This document shows, in pieces, positions 1 through 62,048 of a stretch of 64,000 bases of DNA (its first letter is position 1; each line of letters opens with the position of its first letter). The stretch lies in IMG/VR virus record IMGVR_UViG_3300005512_000026, positions 588 to 64,587 of that record, one strand, 5' to 3'. This DNA comes from a virus. Lineage: Duplodnaviria > Caudoviricetes. The notes beneath the pieces are model-generated. The model ran no database searches, was not told where the DNA came from, and saw only the letters and a list, made by a program, of their open reading frames with translations. Made by a program: the position numbers and the translations under genes.

Positions 1-3000
1 AACGTATCTACGAAGGCTGGGCGTGAGAGTCTTCGGGCTGTGTCGTCTACCCCTGCCGCTGTAGGCAAGGTGGCTAACTTCGCAGATTTCGGAGATGTCT
101 CACGCTCAGTTGATCGTTTGAACGACACTGCTGTTCGTGACTTCATAAAGACCAAAGTTCCAGAACGATTCAAGGGCGCTGTCACAGCCACTCTCAGTGT
201 TGTAAACCCAGTGCGTGTAGTTGACGGAACTCGCGCCGCAGCCAAGGCAATGATTGTCAACGCTAAAGGTCTTGACCAGATAGAGAAGCAATCAGAACTT
301 ACTCTCAGTCTGTTTTTCCGCAGACTACAAAACTCCGGTACTGGAATCGTTGACGATATATCCGAGACAACTGAGAAGGTTACAGGCTTTGTTCCGTCTA
401 CTGGCAAGGTGGAAGGCAAGGCGTTCAGTGTAGGCCCGAACGGGCGAATACTGAATACCGGCGTTGAAGCTATTGATTCAGGTATCAACGGTCAAAACTG
501 GACTTGGAACGAAGTTTTCCAGAACTTGTTTGCAGACATAAACCGTACATCTATTCGTAAACAGTTCGGTGGCGGAAACATTGGTATCTGGGATGAAGGC
601 GCTGGAAAGTATGTTCCAGATGAATCCATTGGCAATGATGTGCCAATAAGGGCTGCTAGGGCTGGCGGTGATGTGCCGTTTGAGCGTGTAGTTGATGATT
701 TTGCGAACTCTCTTTCTGAAAATAGTAGCCTTGCCCACCTAGAGTACATATCGAACAACCTTGTCCCCGATGCGAACACCATTTCCGAATGGCAACAGTC
801 TTCTGCATCACTGCGAAAGCATTTGCTATCTCTCTCCGATGATGGAGAGACGGTTGTTGCTTACCGATCAAGCCCTAATATTGCAAATCAAGAACTTGAA
901 TCATGGACGCTTGATCGTTCTAGGGCACAAATGTTCTCAAACTTGCACTCTCAGGGGCAGTTGCCCATTAGGGAAGAGCGAATTTTAATTGATGACGTTG
1001 TTGCGCCAGGTGCTGCAATGGATTCTGAGTTAATCGTTCGTCGATCTCAACCTAGGAGTGGTCTTAGAGTCGGCGGCACAGTAGACCCAGTAAAAGCATT
1101 TGATGCAAACACAGCAGAACTGGCATCTTATGTACGTCACTTCCAAGACTCTACAGACTCACTGTTGCACGAATACATGCACAAGTCTGGGAAAGTCATA
1201 AAAACAACAGACAAACTGGACGACGCAGCCGCACGGTATGTTCCTCGTCGCCCAGACGGTCTATCTGTATATGACGATGTTCATATCGCCAATGACTCTC
1301 GCCCAACAGGAGCATCACGAACTCCGGGTAAAAAGCCACGAGCGCAACAAGAACGAAGTCTGCGTGATGATGAAGTGCGACAACTCGTAGATTCTGGTGA
1401 ATATTCTCTTACGACTCCAGAGCGGACGTTGATTGAACATGCTCGTGACATGAACAAAGCAGCATGGGATGAGCAGCTTCGCAAGTACATGCAAGCAGAG
1501 TCAAAGCGTCCTGACAGCGGAATTTTGGATATTGGTACTAGTCAGAAAAAAGCAAAGGCTGCTATCAACCGTCTAAAGACAGGGAAAACTAAAACTCTAC
1601 AGCCGAAGACTATATCTGCAATAGAAGAACATCTTCCAGAAACAGCGAAGATTCTGCGACGTGCAAGTGCAGCCGGTGACGATATTGGGCGCACTCAGCA
1701 AATACTAGAAGATGCTACTGCCATCCTGAAGCAAGACGTAGAAACCCTTGGCGACAAGATGTACATACCTACTCGTGGTGGTGCGGTTTCAGGTCGTGCT
1801 GCTGCGAACCCATCTGTTATCCCGCCTCGTGACCGAATGCCTGCGTACACAGGGTTCTTGTTCGAGAGTCACGATGAAGTAAAAGCGCTAATCAACAGAG
1901 CGTATCCAGGCGAAAACCTGAACACTATCGGCAACTTCAACAAGGTTCTTGCTGAGACTGGCGACCTAATGCGTGTCGGTCGAACTGGTTTCGACTTCGG
2001 TTTCTGGATGATTCATGGTCTACCAACTCTAGGACTTGCCGCTTCTAAGACAGTGACCAACCCTAAACTTGGCGCTCGCATGATGGCTTCTTGGGGGAAG
2101 GCTGTAAGAGAAGCAGGGCGTGCAATGGTCGATAACGACCGCATGTTGCTATCACTTGCTGACGATGCGGACATTGTGAACGAAGCAATCGGTAACGGGC
2201 TTCAAGTATCACGAACGTCTACTGACGTGTTCCAAGCAATTCAAAATGGAACGATACTCGCGAAGGCTGGCCCTGTTGGTAGAGCAGCGGACAAGTTGTT
2301 CACTAAGGCAGCGCAGCCGTTTGAAAGCGCATTCGTCGCTCCTGGTGATTACATTCGTATCCAGTATTACAAGGCAATGCGTCCGTCCGCAGCGCTGAAA
2401 GGGCAAGAGGGCTTAGAAGAACTAGCGTCTACCCTGAACAACATGACCGGAGCATTGTCATCATCTGCGCTCGGTATCAATCCAAACTTGCAGCAATTAG
2501 AACGTGGAATCCTATTCTTCTCACCTCGTTACACACGAGCGTCACTTGCTCTTCTAGCCGATGTATTCAAGGGCGGAGTTGCAGGAAGTATGGCGCGCCA
2601 GTCGATGATTGGAATGCTTGGTCTTGGAATGCTTTCGTACCTGATTATGGTGGAAACCAAGAAGGCTGCTGGAGGCAAGCAGGACTACCATCTTGACCCG
2701 TCTAAATCCAGTTTTATGACCATTGATATTGGTGGCGACAAGATTGGATTCGGTGGCTTCTGGACTCAGTTCGCTAAATTGTCCTCTAAGTTAGCATCGC
2801 TATCATGGGATGAGGACGCAAGAGAAGGATTCCTTACAGACGATGTTGCAAGAAAGAACCCTCTTATCAGGTGGGTGCGTTCTCGTTCAGCGCCAACAGC
2901 CGGTATTGGTTGGGACATTGCGATGGGCGAGGACTTCTTAGGTCGTGATATATCTGGCCCTGCTGACTGGACGCAACACATTGGAAAGCAGTCAATTCCT

Positions 3001-4122
3001 ATCTGGCTAGAATCTAACCTTGCTGCTGACCCGTACAAGACCGGAACTGTTGGTACTGGGCTTGAACTTGTTGGTGGAAGAATCCGCCCACTGTCTTCTT
3101 CTGAACGGCGACGAGACCTGCGTAACAGCATCTCTCAAGACGTATACGGAAAAAACTGGGAAGACTTGAACGGCTTGCAGCGTGACCGCATTAATGCTGG
3201 TGACGTGCCAATGGCTCCTGCCGAGTTCGAGGAATTGCAGCGTTTAAATCAAGCAATACTCGATGAAGGTGTGGCGCGTGGTGATGAAGAAGATATTGTC
3301 ATTGAGAAGTACCACCGCCGTCACCAGAACATTGAGGACGAGTGGAACGACCAACTCAAAGAAGGTATTGATCTACTTACCTCGCACCCTGAAGTAATGG
3401 ACTTGCGTAAGTTCCGTGAGATGTATTTGTCTAACGCAAACGCAATCCGCCGTTCACGGCTTGAAGAGTTGAATGACCCAGAAGGAGAGTTCGCCGTTGC
3501 GATTACCTACTTTGAGGAAACCGCTGAGAAGTTTGGCGAAGAGCGCCCAGAAGACATTGCCTACAACGAATATGTCACCGACATCCTGGCGACTGACGAT
3601 TTCGATAAACCGACCGGCTTTGATTACGAAGCCAGAGACATTGCCGTTACTAACTTCCAAAAGAAGTGGGGCAACGAAGTCTACGCCTATGTTCAAGAAA
3701 GATTTGCTACGGGGCGCAATATCCCTGCGCTTGTCAACGAGTTCTGGCAAGGACGATCAAGATTTGAATACTACTGGCGCGACGTAGACGATGCGGTTCT
3801 CGGCTCGATGGCTAACGCTAACGTGTTAGAGCCAGCATATCGAGAATGGAAAGATGCCAGTGCAAATAGGCGTAAAGAGTTAGAACAAGAGACTCCTTCG
3901 TTGAAAACGTTCCTATCTAAACTGTCTCGTGTACGGGTTGCAATGCGTGAGCAAGACCCACTATTAGACGCATGGTTGTTCCGTTGGGGTTACACCGACA
4001 CTATGCGTCATTCACAGAACGCTGTTGCTCCAGATGGAGTAGACGATGCTCGCGACTTCTGGCGAGACCCACAGGTAAAACCCCTTGAAACATTCGGCAT
4101 TCAAAGTGGCATTGTTATTTGA
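1..4122 (+). CDS. Large virion/ejection (polyvalent-type) protein of phage X, 5'-truncated; ART-like domain near 847-1044 and LPD38-like region in the C-terminal third
   Basis: Frame open from base 1 with no stop before 40; >1360 aa; helical; lies beside scaffold/capsid; YR...SWT...SE motif; LPD38-like 'RSRSAPTAGIGWDIAMGEDFLGRDI'. Confidence 0.6.
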   Translation, partial: NVSTKAGRESLRAVSSTPAAVGKVANFADFGDVSRSVDRLNDTAVRDFIKTKVPERFKGAVTATLSVVNPVRVVDGTRAAAKAMIVNAKGLDQIEKQSELTLSLFFRRLQNSGTGIVDDISETTEKVTGFVPSTGKVEGKAFSVGPNGRILNTGVEAIDSGINGQNWTWNEVFQNLFADINRTSIRKQFGGGNIGIWDEGAGKYVPDESIGNDVPIRAARAGGDVPFERVVDDFANSLSENSSLAHLEYISNNLVPDANTISEWQQSSASLRKHLLSLSDDGETVVAYRSSPNIANQELESWTLDRSRAQMFSNLHSQGQLPIREERILIDDVVAPGAAMDSELIVRRSQPRSGLRVGGTVDPVKAFDANTAELASYVRHFQDSTDSLLHEYMHKSGKVIKTTDKLDDAAARYVPRRPDGLSVYDDVHIANDSRPTGASRTPGKKPRAQQERSLRDDEVRQLVDSGEYSLTTPERTLIEHARDMNKAAWDEQLRKYMQAESKRPDSGILDIGTSQKKAKAAINRLKTGKTKTLQPKTISAIEEHLPETAKILRRASAAGDDIGRTQQILEDATAILKQDVETLGDKMYIPTRGGAVSGRAAANPSVIPPRDRMPAYTGFLFESHDEVKALINRAYPGENLNTIGNFNKVLAETGDLMRVGRTGFDFGFWMIHGLPTLGLAASKTVTNPKLGARMMASWGKAVREAGRAMVDNDRMLLSLADDADIVNEAIGNGLQVSRTSTDVFQAIQNGTILAKAGPVGRAADKLFTKAAQPFESAFVAPGDYIRIQYYKAMRPSAALKGQEGLEELASTLNNMTGALSSSALGINPNLQQLERGILFFSPRYTRASLALLADVFKGGVAGSMARQSMIGMLGLGMLSYLIMVETKKAAGGKQDYHLDPSKSSFMTIDIGGDKIGFGGFWTQFAKLSSKLASLSWDEDAREGFLTDDVARKNPLIRWVRSRSAPTAGIGWDIAMGEDFLGRDISGPADWTQHIGKQSIPIWLESNLAADPYKTGTVGTGLELVGGRIRPLSSSERRRDLRNSISQDVYGKNWEDLNGLQRDRINAGDVPMAPAEFEELQRLNQAILDEGVARGDEEDIVIEKYHRRHQNIEDEWNDQLKEGIDLLTSHPEVMDLRKFREMYLSNANAIRRSRLEELNDPEGEFAVAITYFEETAEKFGEERPEDIAYNEYVTDILATDDFDKPTGFDYEARDIAVTNFQKKWGNEVYAYVQERFATGRNIPALVNEFWQGRSRFEYYWRDVDDAVLGSMANANVLEPAYREWKDASANRRKELEQETPSLKTFLSKLSRVRVAMREQDPLLDAWLFRWGYTDTMRHSQNAVAPDGVDDARDFWRDPQVKPLETFGIQSGIVI

Positions 4123-12871: not shown

Positions 12872-14335
12872 ATGGCATTCAAACATTCCAGTGTAGGAAC
12901 TGAATTAACTCAGGCAGAGTACGAGGCAACAACAGCGCACGTACTAGACTCTCAGGCAACAGGCGATCTCATTTACGCTGACGCAGCGACAACAATGACG
13001 CGCCTCGGAATTGGCTCTGCTGCACAGTATCTATCGGTTACTGGCGGTGTTCCTGCGTGGAAGTCGATTCTCGATGAAGACAACATGGCATCTAATAGTG
13101 CTACTGATGTCGCGTCCCAGCAATCCATCAAGGCATACGTGGACTCCCAGATTGGCTCCAACAACGAGTTGTCTGAAGTTCTTGCCAACGGGAACACCAC
13201 TGGTGCTAACGACATCATCGTTTCATCAGGGCAAGCGATCACCACGAACACCATCAGCGAGACTACTGCTGCATCTGGTGTCACGATTGACTCGGTGGTA
13301 CTCAAAGATGGTGGCTTTACTACCGCTGGTGATTCCTTTATTGGTAACGGCAACGGACTCGTTGTAGGGCACACGGCGCAGGAGTCAATCGGTGGTGCGG
13401 GTGTTTCCGAGTTGCAAGTATTGGGTACTGCTGGCGGGGATGCTGCCATTGGTGTTATTCGGGTATCAAACGATACTGGCGGAGCCTCGATAACCCTCGC
13501 AAAGTCTCGTGGTGCTTCTATTGGAGCGCATACTGTTGTCCAAGATAACGACCCGCTTGGGCGTATCGACTTTGCTGGTGATGATGGTGCTGACTACAAC
13601 GCTGTCGGAGCAGCCATTCACGCAGAGGTAGACGGAACCCCTGGCACAAACGATATGCCGGGCAGGCTGGTGTTCAAAACGACAGCAGACGGCGCTCAAG
13701 CAGCAACAGAAGCCCTCCGTATCGACTCGTCGCAGAACACCATCATCCCAGCGACAAAACGTTTGTATCTCGACGGTGGCTCCAATACCTACCTAGTCGA
13801 ATCAGCCGGAGACGTTATCGACATCGTTGTAGGTGGCGGGGCGACTATGGCGGTCGGTGCTGCCGGTGCGTGGATGGCAAGTGGTCACAACTTCACGATC
13901 CAGTCTGGGGACAAGCTCTACCTCGACGGCGGATCCAACACGTACTTCACTGAGGCAGCAGCCGGCACCGTGGATCTCTACGTTGGCGGATCTCAGGAGT
14001 TCCGGTTTGAATCAGACGGCGATTTCCACGCAGATGGAGACGTTTATGCCTTCTCGACGACCACAAGCTCCGACATTAGGTTGAAGAAAAACGTCGTCCA
14101 GTTTGAAAACGCTCTGGACACGGTGAAAGCTCTCCGTGGTGTCGAGTGGGACTGGATCCGAGAGGAGAAGGGTCATTCTGCCGGCTTGATCGCACAAGAG
14201 GTCGAGGAGGTTATGCCATACCTCGTCAAGACTGGCGGGATTGCCAAGGGCGAACCCATGAAAACGCTGAACTATAACGGTCTGATTGGTCTGATGGTCG
14301 AGGCAATCAAGGAACTTGCTGAGAGGATCAACTAA
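12872..14335 (+). CDS. Tail fibre with C-terminal peptidase S74 intramolecular chaperone (X N-terminus + shared block + Y C-terminus)
   Basis: 'SDIRLKKNV...GLIAQEVEEVMPYLV...NYNGLIGLMVEAIKEL' S74 signature; spans repeat copy 1. Confidence 0.85.
   Translation: MAFKHSSVGTELTQAEYEATTAHVLDSQATGDLIYADAATTMTRLGIGSAAQYLSVTGGVPAWKSILDEDNMASNSATDVASQQSIKAYVDSQIGSNNELSEVLANGNTTGANDIIVSSGQAITTNTISETTAASGVTIDSVVLKDGGFTTAGDSFIGNGNGLVVGHTAQESIGGAGVSELQVLGTAGGDAAIGVIRVSNDTGGASITLAKSRGASIGAHTVVQDNDPLGRIDFAGDDGADYNAVGAAIHAEVDGTPGTNDMPGRLVFKTTADGAQAATEALRIDSSQNTIIPATKRLYLDGGSNTYLVESAGDVIDIVVGGGATMAVGAAGAWMASGHNFTIQSGDKLYLDGGSNTYFTEAAAGTVDLYVGGSQEFRFESDGDFHADGDVYAFSTTTSSDIRLKKNVVQFENALDTVKALRGVEWDWIREEKGHSAGLIAQEVEEVMPYLVKTGGIAKGEPMKTLNYNGLIGLMVEAIKELAERIN
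13108..13734 (+). repeat. Direct repeat copy 1 (627 bp; exact core 13197-13734)
   Basis: Base-by-base match to 55583-56209; 6 mismatches, all in 13171-13196. Confidence 0.95.
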
Positions 14336-16917: not shown

Positions 16918-17412
16918 ATGCCTAATAAGAAGATCGATGTTCAGTCGCCGATTCTGGCGTTCCACGGACGGCAGTATCGTTTTCAAGTCCGGGACGCAGT
17001 AACCGGTGAGGTCAAGGTTCGGGACGAAGATCTCGACAAGCCTTTGGAAGGACAGCGAGCGCAGACCCGAGAGGGTGACACTTGCGATCTCATCGAAAAC
17101 CTGTTCACCTCGATTCCTAAGTGGGGTTTTTGGGCGGGTGACTCAGCACACATCAACCGGATCCAAACAGCAGTCAACGACACCCGAGCTAACAAGCTCG
17201 ACGTGATCACGCTCCCGGAGGGAGAATACATCTGGCTCCTCGGGACAGACAGCACCCCCGGATTCCTTGACCGAAAAATGCCGAAATCTGCCTATGATGA
17301 GAACGGATACAAGGACGCAGGGGAAGCGGAGATCCCGACCGTCGGAATGGACGTGTGGAGCCTCAACGAAGATCACTTCCGCACCACATATCTCAAAGCG
17401 AGAACGAGGTAA
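16918..17412 (+). CDS. Hypothetical protein
   Basis: 164 aa ORF. Confidence 0.55.
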   Translation: MPNKKIDVQSPILAFHGRQYRFQVRDAVTGEVKVRDEDLDKPLEGQRAQTREGDTCDLIENLFTSIPKWGFWAGDSAHINRIQTAVNDTRANKLDVITLPEGEYIWLLGTDSTPGFLDRKMPKSAYDENGYKDAGEAEIPTVGMDVWSLNEDHFRTTYLKARTR

Positions 17413-17416
17413 TCGC

Positions 17417-17770
17417 ATGGTTGAACCGCCAAAACAAACTCTCGTAAATGGCAAGCCTGTCGAGGACGAGGATCCCGATGAAACAACAGATAGCACAGTG
17501 GATCAAGGATCTGGCGATCTTCACGGCGAGGGAGCTACTAACGGCAGCGAGGAACAGGCTGGAACCGGAGCAAGATCCGGTAGTGATTCAGCCGACGAAA
17601 CGCAGACTATCCCCACGTCTAAGCAGGAAATCAAAGAGCGAGCCAAAGGCGTAGTCGAACGACTCAGAAGGGATGGGCCAGAGCCGGTTCGGAGGCAAGC
17701 GAAAGGTCTTGTCGACAAGGCGTTCGATGCTATCGACGCTGGCTTTGATCGCTGGTTCGGCGATAAGTAA
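17417..17770 (+). CDS. Acidic disordered N-terminus plus amphipathic C-terminal helices; first gene of Y TatC cassette
   Basis: ATG 17417 after GAGGT; 117 aa; positional analogue of 58911-59273. Confidence 0.6.
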   Translation: MVEPPKQTLVNGKPVEDEDPDETTDSTVDQGSGDLHGEGATNGSEEQAGTGARSGSDSADETQTIPTSKQEIKERAKGVVERLRRDGPEPVRRQAKGLVDKAFDAIDAGFDRWFGDK

Positions 17771-17880
17771 TGGGGACGATTGCCGGGCTGTTCCTAGCGA
17801 TAGGCGGGGCTGTCTACATCCTCGTCAATATCGTCATGAGTTTCGGTGACGACGCTCGGAGCAAGCTCGGCAAGAAGTAA
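17770..17880 (+). CDS. 36-aa single-TM peptide (MGTIAGLFLAIGGAVYILVNIVMSFGDDARSKLGKK)
   Basis: Hand-translated; TAATG coupling at both ends. Confidence 0.6.
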   Translation: MGTIAGLFLAIGGAVYILVNIVMSFGDDARSKLGKK

Positions 17881-18119
17881 TGGGAACATTCTTCACAATC
17901 TTCTTAGTTTCATTCATCGCTGCCTCGGCAGGATCGAACGCGTTGTTCTGGATCTGGAATGATGCCCACCACACGATCGGCTGGCTCATCTTCACCGGGA
18001 TCTTCGTTGCCGTCGCCTACTTCATGGCGGAGATGAAAACCCGAGGAGTTGCCCGAGTGTGGGAACCTCGCTTCCTAAAAGCAAGAAAAGTTGTAGACTC
18101 ACTGACACGACGGGGATAG
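17880..18119 (+). CDS. 79-aa two-TM protein with basic tail (holin-like topology)
   Basis: Two hydrophobic segments, short loop, K/R-rich C-terminus. Confidence 0.6.
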   Translation: MGTFFTIFLVSFIAASAGSNALFWIWNDAHHTIGWLIFTGIFVAVAYFMAEMKTRGVARVWEPRFLKARKVVDSLTRRG

Positions 18120-18141
18120 ATCTCCCCAAAGGAGAAAAATC

Positions 18142-18309
18142 ATGGACAACACATTAGTAATCATCGGAATCATCGCTTTCGTCGTCGCTCTTGGTGGCGG
18201 TGGCTGGCTCTACCGCCGAGGCTTCCTGAGAGGCAAGGCGAAAGAGAACGAGACTGCTGTCGCTGCTGCCGAGGCAGCCGTGGCACAGATGCGCGAAGAA
18301 TCCGCATAA
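18142..18309 (+). CDS. 55-aa single-TM peptide with post-TM RRGFLR motif
   Basis: AAGGAG RBS; MDNTLVIIGIIAFVVALGGGGWLYRRGFLRGKAKENETAVAAAEAAVAQMREESA; stop abuts TatC start. Confidence 0.65.
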   Translation: MDNTLVIIGIIAFVVALGGGGWLYRRGFLRGKAKENETAVAAAEAAVAQMREESA

Positions 18310-19128
18310 TTGCCGCGCTGGTTCTGGCGCTATTTCAGATGGATCGTTCTACCGTTCCTGACGGCTATGGGGACGGCACTTTACTATAGTGCCGACATAT
18401 TCCAGTTCCTCATTGGCCCGGCAGTGGACGCTCTATCGCCATTTGACGGGAAGCCCACCATCACCACGCCGGGCGGGATGGTTTCACAAACCGTCTGGCT
18501 CGGGATCAAGGCGGGAATCGCTGCGTCGATTCCTTCTGTCTGGATTCGACTTCTCTTAGATCTCAGGCATGAAGGTTGGTTTCCCCGTCATTTTTGGTGG
18601 AGGCTTATCGCTTTCACCGGAGCCGGGGCGCTCAGCGCACTAGCTGGACTGTCATTCGTCTATTACGTGATGATGCCGTTCGGCTTGCGGTTCTTGCTCG
18701 GCTTCGGGAATGAAGTCGTTGTCCCGCTGATCACGCTCCCGTCCTATATAGGACTCGTCACCTCGATGGCGTTGTCGGTGGCCATATTCTTTGAGATCCC
18801 GCTGATAATGTTCATAGTCTCCAACATAGGATTGATCGGCTACCAGCGATTCAGAAGGCTCCGGAAGTTCTGGATCCCCACAGCCCTGATCTTTGGAGCG
18901 ATCCTGTCGCCCGGCACAGATCTCGTCAACGCTGCGCTTCTGATCATCCCGCTCATCCTGCTTTACGAGGTTGGAATGTTCATCGTCTGGATCTCCAAAC
19001 CTGCCGACGGTAACTACCTCTGGATCAAGACAATTTGGGGTGCTGTATTCTGGATAGCAACGCGTCCAGTCAGGGCATACCGGAAAGTCGAGAGAGAGCT
19101 AGTCAGGCATGGGATTATTTCGTGGTAG
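18310..19128 (+). CDS. tatC: TatC-family membrane protein, divergent (phage Y)
   Basis: Six TM segments; 'FVYYVMMPFGLRFLL', 'FEIPL', 'GAILSPGTD...IPLILLYEVG' TatC motifs. Confidence 0.8.
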   Translation: MPRWFWRYFRWIVLPFLTAMGTALYYSADIFQFLIGPAVDALSPFDGKPTITTPGGMVSQTVWLGIKAGIAASIPSVWIRLLLDLRHEGWFPRHFWWRLIAFTGAGALSALAGLSFVYYVMMPFGLRFLLGFGNEVVVPLITLPSYIGLVTSMALSVAIFFEIPLIMFIVSNIGLIGYQRFRRLRKFWIPTALIFGAILSPGTDLVNAALLIIPLILLYEVGMFIVWISKPADGNYLWIKTIWGAVFWIATRPVRAYRKVERELVRHGIISW

Positions 19129-19222
19129 GAAACTCTGGACAATCCCCATCGTCTTAGTCGCTGCTTACTACGCAGTTGACCACTGGCTCGAAATAGTCTA
19201 CTACTCCGGCAAGAAGTCGTGA
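19109..19222 (+). CDS. 37-aa TM peptide (MGLFRGRKLWTIPIVLVAAYYAVDHWLEIVYYSGKKS)
   Basis: Hand-translated; overlaps tatC end and next gene (GTGA). Confidence 0.45.
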   Translation: MGLFRGRKLWTIPIVLVAAYYAVDHWLEIVYYSGKKS

Positions 19223-19320
19223 AACGGGTGTGGTTTCACCTCTGGCCACTCCTCCTCCTAGCAGCAGTTTATGGATCCGCAGCGTACGTCGGCGTGTACG
19301 TCTGCTCATGGTGCGGGTAG
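19219..19320 (+). CDS. 33-aa TM micropeptide ending in CSWC
   Basis: MKRVWFHLWPLLLLAAVYGSAAYVGVYVCSWCG; clear homologue at 60715-60810. Confidence 0.75.
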   Translation: MKRVWFHLWPLLLLAAVYGSAAYVGVYVCSWCG

Positions 19321-53847: not shown

Positions 53848-56825
53848 TGGCGAACCGATCTGGAACCGTCGCATCAACGAATCCTGCGACCCACACGCAA
53901 TACAACGACCTTCGCCTTGACGCTATTGGCCCATTCCTCGATAACCGCGTGTGGAATGACAACTACGAAGCTCAGTTTGGCACCAACGGAGCCGATGGAA
54001 GGATCCTCTCAGACGGAACCGACTTGATCATCGACGCAAAAGGTGGCGGGGATATCAATCTCCAAGTCTCCGGGGTGACGCGTCTGCAAGTGACGTCCAC
54101 CGGATTCAACCTCATCGGCGACCAGCTATTTGACGACAACGAAAAAGCGACTTTCGGAACCACGAACAAGGGCAGCGTCTATCACGACGGTACGGATCTC
54201 CATATAGACCCTGACGAGGTTGGAATCGGGAACGTGAAAGTCGGAGCCAGTGTGGTTATCGACGCTTCTGAATCGCTGTTCTTTGGAGCAGTCGAGGTGA
54301 TTGCCGACGCTGCGGGTACAACGACGCTCCAAAACATCGACGCTCTGGACGCTACGACAGAGGCGACCATTGAGGCAGCGGTAGATACACTCTCGAATCT
54401 TACGTCTGCTACGTCTCTGTCGATCACAGAGAGCCAAATAAGCGATTTAGGGACGACGGTAGCTCTTGTCGCCGATAACCTCTCTGTGTTCGCAGCAACA
54501 ACCTCTGCTCAACTCGCCTCAGTCATATCCGATGAGACGGGATCCGGTGCGCTTGTGTTTGGGTCAGCTCCCACACTCTCCTCACCTGTCTTGAATACAG
54601 GCGTGTCCGGATCTGCCGTCCAAGACGACGACAGCTTTACGACTCCAAGCGCGACGAAGCTCGCCTCATCTGAATCAATCAAGGCATACGTCGACGCTGC
54701 GATCACGGCAGGAGATCTCGACTTGGCTGCGGACACCGGAACGATTGACGTAGATCACGATTCCGAGATCTTGACCATCGCTGGCGGAACCGGGATCGAC
54801 ACATCTGCCTCGCTCACGACGGTCACGATCGCTATTGACGCTACGGTGGCGACGCTAACTGGCGCTCAGACGTTGACGAACAAGACGATCAACTCAGCGT
54901 CGAACACGATTACGATCACTGAATCAAGCATTTCGGATCTTCAAAGCTACCTCTTGCCGGGAACAGTCACCGAGGCTGATATCTCAGATCTCGGCATAAC
55001 GGTTGCAATGGTCGCTGACAACCTCTCGGTATTCGCTGCGACAACCTCGGCGCAGCTTGCGGGAGTAATCTCAGACGAGACAGGCTCGGGCGCACTCGTT
55101 TTCGGAACCTCTCCAACAATCGCTACCCCATCATTTACAGGTAATGTGACGATGGCGACTAGCACCAACTTGCTGTCCGGTGCTGTAACCATTCTCTCAG
55201 ACTCAGCGGGCACGATGACGCTCTCAAACATTGATGCGTTGGATGCCACCACAGAGGCGACGATAGAAGCGTCCATAGACACACTCGCTAATTTGACCTC
55301 TGCGGCTTCTCTGGCGACAGTAGGCACTATTACGGCTGGTGTATGGCAGGGGACGGACGTTGGTGTTGCTCATGGTGGCACAGGTGCAAGTACAGCAAGC
55401 GCAGCACGATCTAATCTCGGCGTTGCGATTGGTTCTGACGTACAGGCGTATGACATTGAACTGGCTGCGGTTGCGGGGCTGACCTCTGCTGCCAACAAGG
55501 TTCCACGGTTCACGGGATCAGGGACAGCCGACCTTTTAGACTTCCTTGATGAAGATGGGATGACATCTAACAGCGCAAACGCTGTCGCGTCCCAGCAATC
55601 CATCAAGGCATACGTGGACTCCCAGATTGGCTCCAACAACGAGTTATCTGAGGTTCTCGGTAACGGGAACTCCACTGGTGCTAACGACATCATCGTTTCA
55701 TCAGGGCAAGCGATCACCACGAACACCATCAGCGAGACTACTGCTGCATCTGGTGTCACGATTGACTCGGTGGTACTCAAAGATGGTGGCTTTACTACCG
55801 CTGGTGATTCCTTTATTGGTAACGGCAACGGACTCGTTGTAGGGCACACGGCGCAGGAGTCAATCGGTGGTGCGGGTGTTTCCGAGTTGCAAGTATTGGG
55901 TACTGCTGGCGGGGATGCTGCCATTGGTGTTATTCGGGTATCAAACGATACTGGCGGAGCCTCGATAACCCTCGCAAAGTCTCGTGGTGCTTCTATTGGA
56001 GCGCATACTGTTGTCCAAGATAACGACCCGCTTGGGCGTATCGACTTTGCTGGTGATGATGGTGCTGACTACAACGCTGTCGGAGCAGCCATTCACGCAG
56101 AGGTAGACGGAACCCCTGGCACAAACGATATGCCGGGCAGGCTGGTGTTCAAAACGACAGCAGACGGCGCTCAAGCAGCAACAGAAGCCCTCCGTATCGA
56201 CTCGTCGCAACTAGTCGGCATCGGTGCTGCGTCTGGTGGCGCAAGGCTGGAAGTCGTAGACTCTGGGCTGGCTTCATCGACCGTTTTCAAAGTCACAGCC
56301 GACGATGGAAACCCATACGGAATAATCGTTGGTAACGACACGTTTAGCACATCAGACGTTGAGGGACTTGCCCTCTATGTAACCAACGCTGGTGAGTCAA
56401 AGATTCGTGCGCTTGGAACTGGCGGTGTACTCCACTTAGGGACACCGGCAGCATCAGATCAGGTAGTGATCGACAACTCAGGGAATATGACAATCAAGGG
56501 TGACATCAACCCAAATGCAGACGGGACTCTTGACCTAGGTACGCAGACAACTGCTCAGTGGGCAAACGTGTGGGCAGACCTTGTAAACGGTTCTGACATC
56601 GCTATGGCGAACGGTGTACGAATGCTGGAGTCAGAGTTGTATGAAGGCTACGGTCGTGGCTGGGCGGTCGGCTACGATGCTGACTGGGAAGACGGCAAGG
56701 CTATCTGGAAGAACCGTGACATGATTGGCAACGGCAAGCCGATGTTTGCTGTCACTGAAGATTTCATCGAGTTCAACGGGAAACGTATAACTAAGGCACA
56801 ATGGGCTGCATTAGCAAACGCATAG
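53847..56825 (+). CDS. Tail fibre (Y N-terminus + shared block + X C-terminus), with internal repeats
   Basis: Two copies each of '[28 protein letters not shown]' and '[15 protein letters not shown]'; spans repeat copy 2. Confidence 0.8.
55583..56209 (+). repeat. Direct repeat copy 2 (627 bp; exact core 55672-56209)
   Basis: Matches 13108-13734 at constant offset 42,475. Confidence 0.95.
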
Positions 56826-58543: not shown

Positions 58544-58753
58544 ATGGGAAGTGAACAAGAATTCACGCTGGAACAGTGGGTAGCGGACATCTCAGAAGCC
58601 CACAACAACCACGCCAAGATGATCGAGACTCTACAACTGCGCCAAGATAACGTGAACGAGCGCTTGGAAGCTGTAGAAGAATCTGTAAACAGTATTCGCC
58701 AGTCAGTGAACTCCATCTTGGGGTATTTAGACATCACCATTGAAGGGAACTAA
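58544..58753 (+). CDS. Coiled-coil hypothetical protein
   Basis: AAGGAG RBS; 69 aa. Confidence 0.55.
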   Translation: MGSEQEFTLEQWVADISEAHNNHAKMIETLQLRQDNVNERLEAVEESVNSIRQSVNSILGYLDITIEGN

Positions 58754-58779: not shown

Positions 58780-58914
58780 ATGAAAGCACTAGAACGGAAA
58801 GCGTGTATCAGATGCAAGCACGAGTGGTGGCCTCGAACAACTAGAGAGCCAGTGAGATGCCCTGCTTGCAAATCCCCTTACTGGAACAAGTCACGACAGA
58901 GGAAATCTAAATGA
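58780..58914 (+). CDS. 44-aa zinc-ribbon protein
   Basis: CIRC...WWPR....P..CPACKSPYWN; hand-translated. Confidence 0.6.
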   Translation: MKALERKACIRCKHEWWPRTTREPVRCPACKSPYWNKSRQRKSK

Positions 58915-59273
58915 CAACTAATCCAGAAACACCGGAGACCGACAACACTGAAGAAGAGGTTGTCGAGCCTGCTCCTAAGAAGAAGCCTGTGCGTAAGCGT
59001 AAGCCAGCAGCAAAGAAGCCGACTACTCGTAAAGCATCTCCCAAGAAGGTTCCGACTACACCAAAGGAATTTACTGAGGAAATCAAAGAGAACCTTACCG
59101 AGACTAAAGATCGTGTTGTTGAAGAAGCCGTTCAGCCAGCAAAAGAACTTATAGATAAGTGGGGCGGTATGGCGGACTACGCTGTGGATGCTGTGCTAAA
59201 CGCTAAAGATAATGCTCTTGCTTGGTGGGATGGTTTCGTAGGCAATGAGAAGAAGAAAGAAGAAGACGAGTAA
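58911..59273 (+). CDS. Charged disordered N-terminus plus amphipathic C-terminus; first gene of X TatC cassette
   Basis: 120 aa; analogue of 17417-17770. Confidence 0.6.
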   Translation: MTTNPETPETDNTEEEVVEPAPKKKPVRKRKPAAKKPTTRKASPKKVPTTPKEFTEEIKENLTETKDRVVEEAVQPAKELIDKWGGMADYAVDAVLNAKDNALAWWDGFVGNEKKKEEDE

Positions 59274-59537
59274 TGCACCCTTTAGGCTGGATGCTTCGCT
59301 TCTTTCTAATAGCGCTGCTTGGTGCAGCAACTGCGGAACAGGTTATGTCCTGGCTGCTACCGAATGTAGGTGATCCCGAAAAGGGGGTTACGTTTCGTGG
59401 CAGTGGGAACACTGATCGGAACTGTCGGGACGATGCGTAACTTTACATCATCTGTTCGTGGATACCGTCAAAAGGTTTTTGGCGGGGTAAACAAGTTTGG
59501 CGTTCTGGGTAAATTCAGCCGCCGAAAGGAACTGTAA
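59273..59537 (+). CDS. Two-TM holin-like protein interrupted by a +1 frameshift at a G5 run (59383-59387)
   Basis: Frame 0 stops at 59440; +1 frame gives second TM and basic tail to 59537. Confidence 0.5.
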
Positions 59538-59539
59538 AA

Positions 59540-59662
59540 ATGGATATTCCAATTATGGTCATTGCGGCAGTTTGTGCCACGATCATTGTTGTTGGGTTCG
59601 CTGTTCGGACGTACAACAAGATCAAGAGCAAAGCCGTAGCGGACGCACAGAAAAAGGCATAG
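59540..59662 (+). CDS. 40-aa single-TM peptide (MDIPIMVIAAVCATIIVVGFAVRTYNKIKSKAVADAQKKA)
   Basis: AAGGA RBS; immediately upstream of tatC, as 18142-18309 is in Y. Confidence 0.6.
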   Translation: MDIPIMVIAAVCATIIVVGFAVRTYNKIKSKAVADAQKKA

Positions 59663-59665
59663 CCC

Positions 59666-60718
59666 TTGCACCCTCGTTCATCTTACGAACGGTGGTACAC
59701 AGTCGGGGAACGGTGGCGATGGACGGTAATGCTCTCTATTGCCGCCTTTTTCGCCGCTGCTCTCTCGACGTTTTATTGGCACGAAGAAGTGTTTGCTTTT
59801 CTTCTTGCCCCAGCAGACGGCAAACTATCTCCCTTCGACGGTAAGCCTATCGTCACTGTTCCCACAGGAGGCTTCGGAGCCACCCTGGGAATATCACTAT
59901 CAGCAGGCAAGATAGCTGCTATACCTGTTTTTGCGGTTGGCATTGTTGCCCTTGCAAAACCCCTGATGCCCCACAGTTGGTGGCAGCGCTTCTTAGCCAT
60001 CAATGTGACTGCTGGCTTTACCCTGTTTACTCTTGGTTGCGTGTTCGTTTACTACGTCATGCTTCCGGTGAGTATGAGGTTTCTTCTCTCGTATGCAGAC
60101 GACACCGTTGTATATGTAATAACCCTTGAAGCGTACTTAGAGATGGTGTTCGCCCTGTTCCGGTGGATAGGGCTGATCTTCTTGATTCCGTTGGGAATGA
60201 ACATGCTGGCTCGAACAGGTCAGTTTTCGTATCCAAGAGTCAAAGCGCTCTACAGACTGATCTTTTTTCTGACGTTGTTCTTTTCAGCACTTATCTCCCC
60301 AGGGCTTGACCCTGTGCTTACCGTAATGGTTGCTGTGCCGATGTATTCGCTGTACTTGGTCGGACTCGGTGGCGTGTGGGTCGTTAGGCCAGAGACAGGG
60401 AACTTCTTGTGGTTCTGGACGATGAAGCCTTGGTACGACAGATTGGGAATAACATGGCTGTCGTTGAGGGTTGCGGCTTTGGCGGTCTTGCTGATCGAAG
60501 CTGTTGTGTGGCTAGTAGACGCTGCACTGAGAACTGTTATCGGTCTAATGCGAGCGCTTCGGTCGCTCGTAGCGGCGCTTATTCGGTCTCGCCACGCACT
60601 GTATGCGTCAATCAGGCTGGAACAGCGTCTCTGGCGACTCTGGCTGCGTTTCTGGAGACTACCTGAACGCATTGGCTACTGGCTGGCAGACAAGATTGCT
60701 AATGTATTCTCACGATGA
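59666..60718 (+). CDS. tatC: TatC-family membrane protein, divergent, with long C-terminal extension (phage X)
   Basis: 'LSPFDGKP','FVYYVMLP...RFLL','ALISPGLDP...VPMYSLY'. Confidence 0.8.
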   Translation: MHPRSSYERWYTVGERWRWTVMLSIAAFFAAALSTFYWHEEVFAFLLAPADGKLSPFDGKPIVTVPTGGFGATLGISLSAGKIAAIPVFAVGIVALAKPLMPHSWWQRFLAINVTAGFTLFTLGCVFVYYVMLPVSMRFLLSYADDTVVYVITLEAYLEMVFALFRWIGLIFLIPLGMNMLARTGQFSYPRVKALYRLIFFLTLFFSALISPGLDPVLTVMVAVPMYSLYLVGLGGVWVVRPETGNFLWFWTMKPWYDRLGITWLSLRVAALAVLLIEAVVWLVDAALRTVIGLMRALRSLVAALIRSRHALYASIRLEQRLWRLWLRFWRLPERIGYWLADKIANVFSR

Positions 60719-60810
60719 GATTCCCACGCTGGCTGCTAGACCTGTTGCTGCTGGCGGCAGTGTACGGCATTACTGCGTACTGGGGAGTCTACGTCTGCGG
60801 GTGGTGCTGA
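60715..60810 (+). CDS. 31-aa TM micropeptide ending in CGWC
   Basis: MRFPRWLLDLLLLAAVYGITAYWGVYVCGWC; homologous to 19219-19320. Confidence 0.75.
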   Translation: MRFPRWLLDLLLLAAVYGITAYWGVYVCGWC

Positions 60811-60848
60811 AGCCATGTGGCAGAATGTTCGCAAGAAAGAGGGATTAT

Positions 60849-61088
60849 ATGGGAATGATTAACTGGGCGGGACTTCCGTTCATACTGGGCGGTGAGGCTT
60901 TATCGGCACTGCGCTCGTATAACTTCTGGGCTGCCGTCGCAATGATCGTGGCCATATCTTGGGCGTTCCAAGGGGTCGTGAACAGCGAGGCAATGCTCAA
61001 GTCCACTTATACATGCGAAGACTCCACTGACAAGATGCTTTGGTGGGAAGGCTTCTCAGAAGCCCCAGAATGGTGTTCTAATGACTAA
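60849..61088 (+). CDS. 79-aa membrane protein
   Basis: Hydrophobic segments; last + strand gene before convergent block. Confidence 0.5.
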   Translation: MGMINWAGLPFILGGEALSALRSYNFWAAVAMIVAISWAFQGVVNSEAMLKSTYTCEDSTDKMLWWEGFSEAPEWCSND

Positions 61089-61628
61089 CCAAGAAGACCG
61101 CATCAGACGGGTGGAGGCAAGCCCCTTGACAGATCCTGTAACTCGTATTCCGTCACAGAGTACTGGAAGTCGAATGGAACTCGAAGCCGACGTGTCCGAC
61201 TGGCTGAATCAATCTCCACCAAGTTAACGCAAATAGGGCAAACGTCCGGGCACTGCGGATGGTCTAGTGGTTCAGGAGCTTCTGGCGCGGTGTCGCTATC
61301 GCAGATGCGTAAAGCGACCCCTGTCAGCTGGTCACGGAACCAGAAATGAAGTACAGGCGGCTTTTGATCGGGTAGCACTCCCGGCCACGCGGTGATCTCC
61401 ATATTTTTCTCCCTGCATACAAAAGTAGCCGTTTCGGGAGAGTCGCTCTTAGAGACTCCGTTACCTGATTTGATCAGTACGAAGAATTATGAACGCCCCT
61501 CTATCCGAACACCAATCGTGTTACAGAAAACCCCTCGGAGCGCGGATTGGAGACAACGCTGCTCAACGAGGGGCTTCCAAATATGTACGCCCAGCCTACA
61601 AAGGCGCACACCAACAGAGTACCACGGC

Positions 61629-62048
61629 TTACGTTCCCCACGTAACTGTGATGGCGGTGCGCTCTTCTCCAATTGGACACCGCCACTTCTGTAGGAATAT
61701 CCGGTCTACTTGATTATCGTCTTGCCACACAGAAGCCTCAGAGAGACCGTCCATAATTGGCTTTAGTAGATTGTCACTGTCCGGTTTGCTGACGTGCGCT
61801 GTGGTGCTGTTGGCTACCTTCTTTGGCTTGCCTTTCGCCCACGGCAGATACACGTCAACCATGAGTCCTACTGGCACGTCCTCTGGGGCAGTCTCTACTT
61901 GGTGTTCACGCATCGCTAAGAAGGCTTGTTCTTTTACGACTGCCTTCCAGCGAGCGACGTTCGGAGTATTGTGCATTCCCCGTCCGCCCTTGTTGATGCG
62001 TGGTCTACCGGCTGCTGCCTTGCCCTCTATGGTGAACTCCAGTTTCAT
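61629..62048 (-). CDS. rusA: RusA-family Holliday junction resolvase
   Basis: 'KPDSDNLLKPIMDGL','WQDDNQV'. Confidence 0.85.
   Translation of the reverse strand: MKLEFTIEGKAAAGRPRINKGGRGMHNTPNVARWKAVVKEQAFLAMREHQVETAPEDVPVGLMVDVYLPWAKGKPKKVANSTTAHVSKPDSDNLLKPIMDGLSEASVWQDDNQVDRIFLQKWRCPIGEERTAITVTWGT

Follow-up and report, generated by a model that had tools for sequence, protein, structure and literature searches.

Within IMG/VR virus record IMGVR_UViG_3300005512_000026 (Caudoviricetes), we describe a compact gene cassette built around a homologue of TatC, the receptor of the Tat (twin-arginine translocation) system. The stretch analysed, hereafter the window, comprises 64,000 nucleotides (bases 588–64587 of the 64,587-bp record) and holds two copies, the X cassette (58911–60810) and the Y cassette (17267–19320). 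In X, six plus-strand genes whose stops and starts overlap or nearly touch follow one another in the order A-B-C-D-TatC-F (Table 1), and the Y copy has the same order. An earlier note, made from the sequence alone, had reported a second TatC cassette of the same order and high divergence, and we find it so, the two TatC proteins being 34% identical over 241 residues (E 7e-39). The note had counted five genes, one of them encoding two transmembrane (TM) helices; here it needs correction, since this 'two-TM' gene is really a pair of overlapping one-helix genes, B and C, each conserved elsewhere, which brings the number of genes to six. Membrane proteins make up five of the six products.

Table 1. 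Features of the X cassette and its surroundings, with two genes of the Y copy (window positions; aa, amino acids).
Feature	Position	Strand	Description
Zinc-ribbon peptide	58780..58914	+	Open reading frame (ORF), 44 aa; two CxxC pairs; stop overlaps gene A start
Gene A	58911..59273	+	120 aa; acidic N-terminus, Lys/Pro/Ala-rich basic middle, amphipathic C-terminus ending ..WWDGFVGNEKKKEEDE
Gene B	59273..59440	+	55 aa; starts MHPLGWM, one hydrophobic helix, acidic tail ..RDDA; start overlaps A stop
Gene C	~59370..59537	+	~45–55 aa; different frame, overlaps B end; hydrophobic N-terminus, conserved basic core RGYRQKVFGGVNKFGVLGKF; exact start uncertain
Gene D	59540..59662	+	40 aa; acidic N-terminus (MDIP), one TM helix, basic tail
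Gene E (TatC)	59666..60718	+	350 aa; TTG start; PF00902, PDB sequence matches, AlphaFold2 and Foldseek
Gene F	60715..60810	+	31 aa; basic N-terminus, one TM helix, C-terminal CGWC; start overlaps TatC stop
Possible seventh gene G	60849..61088	+	79 aa; two hydrophobic segments, Cys-containing polar tail; ribosome-binding site GAGGG 8 nt upstream
Probable convergent terminator block	61525..61640		115 nt; almost identical to L003:7140-7265
Y TatC	18310..19128		272 aa
Y F peptide	19219..19320		

Gene E is a TatC homologue, as the earlier note had supposed, with a six-helix TatC core (residues ~17–240). The X protein matches Pfam family PF00902 at E 1.8e-30 (106.8 bits, the cut-off being 25.1), and a six-frame search with the same family recovers both copies (X, 107.7 bits; Y, 95.0 bits). 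Its sequence matches in the PDB, 4hts and 4b4a among them, are to the Aquifex and E. coli TatCs. The AlphaFold2 model has a mean predicted local distance difference test score of 79.9, and in Foldseek it matches no PDB structures at E <= 1e-3 other than seven of TatC, led by 4b4a (E 9e-8; TM-score 0.66 normalised to 4b4a).

With canonical TatC (Aquifex aeolicus, 4B4A and 4HTS; E. coli TatBC, 9DZZ and 9E01) the viral proteins share, besides the six-helix fold and the TM5/6 aspartate, P87, G124, FxY..P, F.LL, Y157, F172.P175, T/S-P..D and P225. We counted residues in 40 viral rows and in the 65 nearest cellular TatC rows (27 and 62, respectively, at E15). The TM5/6 aspartate, equivalent to D211 and represented in X by D215, is D or E in 39 of 40 viral rows, and the T208 equivalent (S211 in X) is T or S in just as many. 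Q215, which we take to be part of a polar cluster holding TatA/B, is mostly lost (Q in 7/40). At the buried glutamate of TM4 (E170 equivalent, in FE.P) 20 of the 40 viral rows have E, 11 have Q and 9 something else; it is lost in X (L173, within IFLIPL) and kept in Y (FFEIPL).

The replaced positions are of another kind. At the E15 equivalent, in the HL.ELR.R motif, an acidic residue is present in 60 of 62 cellular rows (E 58, D 2) and in none of the 27 viral rows, which instead have mainly arginine or lysine (R 17, K 3). The F94 equivalent is F or Y in 64/65 cellular rows, against F in 2/40 and L in 24/40 viral rows, while the E103 equivalent is E in 57/65 cellular and 0/40 viral rows (D in three of the latter). 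X has R16, L96 and W106 at these three positions, and Y has W, D and F. F94 and E103 are key residues in binding the twin-arginine (RR) motif (PMC13673990); as judged from the alignment, the viral clade has replaced all three RR-binding residues. Haloarchaeal TatCt is likewise without F94 and E103, from which it has been inferred to be signal-blind, acting only within a larger assembly (PMC13673990). TatCt is, however, a cellular 14-helix fused double TatC paired with an active TatCo, whereas the phages encode one unfused six-helix TatC, which has small partners of its own and no active TatC gene adjoining.

The viral clade has also gained residues, namely L54, S55, P56, G59 and P61, all within the first outer loop, as well as W238 and a Trp/Arg-rich tail. 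Two motifs that the earlier note had singled out, LSPFDGKP in the loop and P..GN[YF]LW at the opening of a non-canonical C-terminal extension, are indeed common to X and Y, and neither the loop motif nor the extension (GNYLW, followed by a Trp/Arg-rich helix) belongs to canonical TatC. In X this family-specific extension opens at PETGNFLW. The X protein owes its length of 350 aa to an insertion of ~63 aa in the tail that X alone has (roughly residues 256–325; window 60431–60640), which is Leu/Arg/Ala-rich and predicted to form one long helix; it is not present in a relative that is 63% identical (locus L003), and the last 25 residues are again common to both. Again in contrast to canonical TatC, the viral gene is phage-encoded at the end of a late operon, with no TatA or TatB gene nearby.

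The two cassettes belong to two different uncultured marine phages, which for reasons of assembly or biology stand in one record. A near-identical stretch recurs in two fibre genes (13067–13735 and 55542–56210; offset 42,475 nt, 97% at the protein level), and G+C is 0.54–0.57 inside most of the interval 13067–56210 and 0.49–0.52 outside it. Relatives of the outer (X) part are complete genomes of 37–39 kb with terminal repeats, a giant protein and an X-type cassette, and these X-type records (G001, G003, G005) hold no close relative of the Y terminase, G003 alone giving one faint match (E 4e-6, 25% identity). The inner (Y) part has a relative of its own, G006, whose capsid is 74% identical to that of Y and whose cassette is Y-type. 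On these four grounds, the fibre repeat, the G+C difference, the X-type relatives and G006, we read the record as two joined phages and reject a single 64.6-kb phage with two cassettes. The record is probably an assembly chimera, in which a whole Y genome (42.5 kb) was assembled into a partial X genome (22 kb) via the fibre repeat, although it may be a true cointegrate of the two; in either case both phages are present, and they probably share one host. The giant protein that opens the X-type structural region (window 40–4122, 1360 aa) has relatives in G001 (C1:7-4407), G003 and G005, with frames of 1468–2153 aa and 27% identity, and matched nothing in Pfam or PHROG.

Gene D directly precedes TatC. 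Its product is predicted by the positive-inside rule to lie N-out, C-in, and its homologues could be aligned from 16 loci. In 17 of 19 loci the junction between D and TatC consists of a stop codon (TAG or TAA), 3 nt and a start codon, in frame, with about half of the starts being TTG; this fixed arrangement suggests translational coupling by termination-reinitiation, and a read-through D-TatC fusion would be topologically possible too. Resemblance to TatA is confined to topology and gene position: none of the 16 D homologues matched TatA/B/E (PF02416) at E <= 10, and the FG-KKLP motif is not present. We had also considered a short, TatA-like helix for D, and rejected it on the count of ~19–20 hydrophobic residues, which is a normal length.

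The peptide with a TM helix and a CxWC motif, noticed earlier as the last member of the cassette, is present as F in both X and Y. The two F peptides are 76% identical over 25 residues (19/25) with a proportion of synonymous differences (pS) of 0.83 and of non-synonymous differences (pN) of 0.23, and close pairs have pN/pS of 0.03–0.16; by these measures F is a real gene under purifying selection. It follows TatC in 12 loci, encodes 28–33 aa, and occurs with CxWC, CDRC, CNDC and CDQC variants, as well as in a cysteine-free version in two loci. The charge distribution predicts that the CGWC of F lies outside the cytoplasm. By F, X is nearer to Y (19/25) than to the L014 type (~10/25), while TatC shows the opposite trend (X vs Y 34%; X vs L014 type 41–44%). 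Since synonymous sites are saturated, the likeness of the X and Y peptides reflects constraint and not recent transfer. Likeness between X and Y is thus far greater for F than for TatC, and a single host probably serves both phages; the counterpart of F may therefore be a component of the host and not TatC, possibly a host partner common to both.

As a separate observation on this part of the cassette, a non-coding block of ~90 nt lies between TatC and F in loci L012, L014, L016, L017, L018, L020, L022, L024 and L030 (e.g. L016:1990-2090). About 35 of its columns are invariant though the flanking proteins are only ~40–60% alike; its 5' half contains GGTCG..CGACC and its 3' half a GC-rich hairpin with TTTG after it. 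The window does not contain this block, for which there is no Rfam or tRNA match.

Genes A, B and C precede D. The product of A belongs to no Pfam family, but its homologues stand before TatC in ~18 loci, where they share ..VEPA.E.. and an end of the form G.[FL][LI]G[NS]K[KR][KR][DE]; pN/pS against L003 is 0.36, and the nearest Atlas clusters, all viral (score 0.84–0.86), are a lead only. Gene B keeps its MHPLGWM start and an RDD[EG] end in ~12 loci (pN/pS 0.48). L003, L004, L010 and L031 carry homologues of C (pN/pS 0.38); in L012-type loci, a clade in which the N-terminal helix has been lost, the homologous peptide is shorter and has no TM segment. The best-conserved part of C, RG[FY]RR[NK][VI]FG[KR][IV]NKLG, corresponds to window 59440–59500 and is seen in L003, L004, L010, L012-L024 and L031. 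This motif is similar to RRxFLK, the consensus of Tat signals, but no hydrophobic region comes after it; peptide D of Y carries YRRGFLR.

Between X and Y themselves the products of A, B/C and D can hardly be aligned pairwise, and their homology becomes visible only through intermediate loci. Against its nearest relative, L003, the X cassette has pN/pS of 0.13–0.55 across all six genes, F being the most constrained; these ratios indicate that all six are under purifying selection. The flanking small ORFs are conserved across additional loci (A in ~18, B in ~12, D in 16, F in 12), as the view of the cassette as an old, selected module had required of them.

That view gains further from the distribution of the cassette. 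A search for more phages with the same gene order, recommended in the earlier note, yielded ~20 further marine viral loci in which the cassette has the same order and the same place, following fibre-like genes as the last part of the late operon, so that the claim that both phages keep it behind their fibres extends well beyond the window. At least two unrelated genome types are represented, X-type (G001, G003, G005) and Y-type (G006), and the order A-B-(C)-D-TatC recurs across loci, always behind large fibre-like genes. A word-indexed search gave 26 relatives, all of them metagenome proteins. A profile search against 1.84 billion representatives gave ~44 clusters (50% identity) at E < 1e-46 with matches reaching into the C-terminal extension, and below these the scores drop to ordinary TatCs matching the core only. 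IMG/VR contributed 21 loci, and further contigs came from ENA and JGI, including a TARA Oceans scaffold. One locus (L006) has a gene with a VTT/DedA domain downstream. In L003 an X-type cassette stands behind Y-type fibre-tip genes, which indicates that the module recombines between phages. Among 50,697 phage records, tblastn with the Y TatC found no isolated phage, only one weak partial match to an unannotated gut contig; BFVD contained no genuine viral TatC, only a TatC-T4 lysozyme crystallisation chimera; and the sole mention found in a literature search is an annotation in a figure legend of PMC10564846, where the gene is labelled, in DRAM-v style, simply TatC.

In a maximum-likelihood tree of 74 rows, midpoint-rooted and with only the best scorers against the viral profile as cellular rows, X and Y TatC fall inside an all-viral clade of 29 rows (Shimodaira-Hasegawa-like approximate likelihood ratio test, SH-aLRT, 97). 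The split between viral and cellular rows has an SH-aLRT of 98, with two exceptions: P0110, a low-scoring and presumably cellular row, lies on the viral side, and P0064, presumed viral, on the cellular side. Since X and Y lie in one all-viral clade, the tree fits a single old capture of TatC, not two; independent captures, which would have undone the idea of an old module, are not what it suggests. A tie of the module to the host envelope, also put forward in the earlier note, is conjecture.

Clues to the host are few. The nearest named cellular TatCs come from Dehalococcoidia, and the viral proteins are ~30% identical to the nearest cellular ones. Scanning GTDB genomes with a single peptide pattern returned mostly ordinary alphaproteobacterial TatCs and one member of the family, L031, a 10-kb phage-like contig binned in a Planctomycetota metagenome-assembled genome, which is too weak as host evidence. 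A weak hint comes from PMC10564846, where one of two circular viruses has a k-mer link to Porticoccus, the carrier of TatC among the two being unspecified. A search with the terminase gave no host clue.

The cassette is the final coding block of the late operon, both in the window and in the ~20 related loci: it comes after fibre-like genes and before a probable convergent terminator. The block at 61525–61640 is near-identical in the window and L003, in contrast to neighbouring genes, whose pS is 0.5–0.7. Read on the minus strand, it has a GC-rich hairpin followed by UUUUCUGU (a U-run) and folds at -47.8 kcal/mol (z -2.66), and it is probably a terminator between convergent late and early operons. 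Neither the cassette nor the related loci gave any match in searches for tRNAs and Rfam families. On the upstream side, the zinc-ribbon peptide has weak zinc-ribbon matches in Pfam and is 80% identical to L003:5106-5240 (pN/pS 0.37); its membership in the cassette is uncertain. The gene just before it, at 58544–58753, encodes a coiled coil with weak likeness to XhlA (E 1.6e-4, which does not reach the Pfam cut-off). Downstream, gene G is holin-like in its predicted architecture; it has no Pfam family and no counterpart in related loci, and L003 has an unrelated 43-aa TM peptide at the same place.

This position, together with the abundance of small membrane proteins, is that of a lysis cassette, though the muralytic enzyme expected of one was not found. 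Muralytic Pfam families were absent from the scanned window ORFs and from the 40 ORFs of the complete genome G001, and the endolysin families PF00959, PF01510, PF13539 and PF01464 from five TatC-bearing phage records; for Y this search has power, because the Y head genes (terminase, portal, capsid) are well recognised. The same five records gave no match to TatA/B/E (PF02416) at E <= 1, in a search whose control was positive in 13 of 14 cellular genomes. A scan of all window ORFs for twin-arginine signals found none that was credible. Two pattern matches were set aside, both being alternative-frame ORFs, one of which (17673–17849) is not conserved in L008 or L026.

Several known systems resemble the cassette in part. 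In Bacillus subtilis tatAd-tatCd and tatAy-tatCy, a small gene for an N-out single-helix protein stands immediately upstream of tatC, the two being co-translated, much as D is placed here. Unlike the subunit of such a minimal TatAC system, however, D has no detectable TatA/B/E homology and no FG-KKLP hinge, and no RR cargo gene is linked to it. The lysis genes S-R-Rz-Rz1 of lambda and xhlA-xhlB-xlyA of PBSX similarly form late-end clusters of small membrane proteins with charged tails and overlapping or coupled frames, but the cassette differs from them in having no endolysin, no recognisable holin or spanin family, and a six-TM TatC homologue as its central gene. To our knowledge no lysis cassette with a six-TM TatC homologue has been described, and our literature searches likewise gave none.

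The interpretation that we favour, tentatively and at less than even odds, is that the cassette encodes a Tat-derived phage membrane complex that breaches the membrane at lysis in the manner of a holin. The viral TatC, which has retained its fold and the TM5/6 aspartate, would no longer select cargo and would serve as a scaffold, and its partners would be the co-encoded small membrane peptides. Among these, D would be produced in step with TatC through the stop-3nt-start junction, F would turn its CxxC pair towards the outside, B and C would be further partners, and A would be a cytoplasmic amphipathic protein. Production of the complex would come last in the late operon, at a point where lysis genes are expected and no endolysin was found, and, like a holin, the complex would weaken or open the cytoplasmic membrane at a defined moment. 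The timer might be A, C or the CxxC pair, and the complex might act alone or by recruiting host TatA. What speaks for this proposal is the position at the end of the late operon, the content of membrane proteins, the selection on the genes, the loss of the RR site alongside retention of the TM5/6 Asp, the lack of a TatA gene and of any muralytic enzyme found, and the fixed D-TatC junction.

Several points weigh against it. D is not a TatA homologue and has a helix of normal length, so that a TatA-like hydrophobic mismatch cannot be claimed. If the host has ordinary peptidoglycan, damage to the membrane alone would not lyse it. Gene G, the holin-like gene downstream in X, may be the actual holin. 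Detection power in the X-type lineage is low, Pfam having named neither the large terminase nor the portal in the complete G001, and the missing X-type endolysin is for that reason weak evidence. Finally, if Q215 does hold TatA/B, as we assume, its loss makes canonical recruitment of host TatA doubtful.

Two other functions can be drawn from the same facts. The cassette could be a private translocase or insertase, in which the viral TatC and D form a minimal two-part exporter with a binding site rebuilt, by Arg in place of Glu15 and aromatic residues in place of Glu103, for a tag that is not RR and is perhaps acidic. What it moves onto or through the membrane late in infection would be some protein of the phage; A and B, whose acidic ends are conserved, would be candidates, as would a protein associated with the fibres. 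The retained TatC fold and TM5/6 Asp would be expected of such a device, as would a small-TM gene translationally coupled to tatC after the fashion of tatAd-tatCd (PMC13673990); moreover, the E15 position is not merely degraded, Arg or Lys being conserved in 20 of 27 rows, and A and B always lie just upstream with their charged C-terminal motifs kept. Against these stand the lack of TatA similarity in D and of any credible Tat-type signal among the window ORFs, and no candidate cargo was seen that combines a hydrophobic, signal-like N-terminus with a folded domain; the acidic tag, for its part, is pure inference, and on balance we regard export of this kind as unlikely. We think it more improbable still that the cassette interferes with host Tat, either through entry of an RR-blind viral TatC into host TatBC oligomers or through occupation of the receptor site by peptide C or by peptide D of Y with its YRRGFLR. 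Export of folded host proteins would then be blocked or falsely triggered, to the benefit of takeover, exclusion of other phages or lysis timing. There is a precedent in TatCt, an RR-blind paralogue without F94 and E103 that must pair with an active TatC (PMC13673990); the phages encode no TatA, and conservation within C is strongest, in two clades, at basic motifs that include RR. Yet a late-operon position is odd for takeover, C is moderately similar to the Tat consensus (RQ stands in two loci, and RR is missing from one), mixed oligomers are uncertain for a protein ~30% identical to the nearest cellular TatC, and five conserved partner genes exceed what a simple poison would need.

The plainest account, an ordinary auxiliary gene whose working TatC boosts host Tat export amid small ORFs that are unrelated or spurious, has the strong Pfam match and the annotation in the figure legend of PMC10564846 in its favour. 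We consider it very improbable, in view of the clade-wide replacement of all three RR-binding residues, the small flanking genes conserved in order and under purifying selection in ~20 loci, and the family-specific loop motif and C-terminal extension that separate the clade from cellular TatC.

Returning to membrane opening at lysis, a bolder version can be formulated, which is speculative and to which we would give perhaps one chance among several. A marine phage clade would have turned the Tat receptor into the core of a new lysis or host-membrane device: an RR-blind TatC scaffold, with Arg and aromatic residues replacing the signal-binding glutamates, joined by four micropeptides, of which one would carry an RR-like decoy motif and another an extracytoplasmic CxxC switch. 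Cargo-free, Tat-style opening would here take over from holin and endolysin; the hosts might be ones whose peptidoglycan is unusual or missing, for example Dehalococcoidia/SAR202.

TatC is a known protein family; its viral form, the partners of that form and its probable use are undescribed. Across a viral clade of ~44 clusters (50% identity), the fold of TatC and its voltage-linked aspartate have been kept while cargo recognition appears to have been lost, and the protein is always accompanied by the same micropeptides in the place where lysis genes belong. With the 28–33-aa CxxC peptide and the overlapping B and C, these loci hold conserved coding sequence below the usual limits of gene calling. 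If the cassette does open the membrane, it would represent a new class of holin-like device and a natural experiment on substrate-free membrane thinning by Tat, and it could explain how abundant marine phages without a recognisable endolysin leave their hosts.

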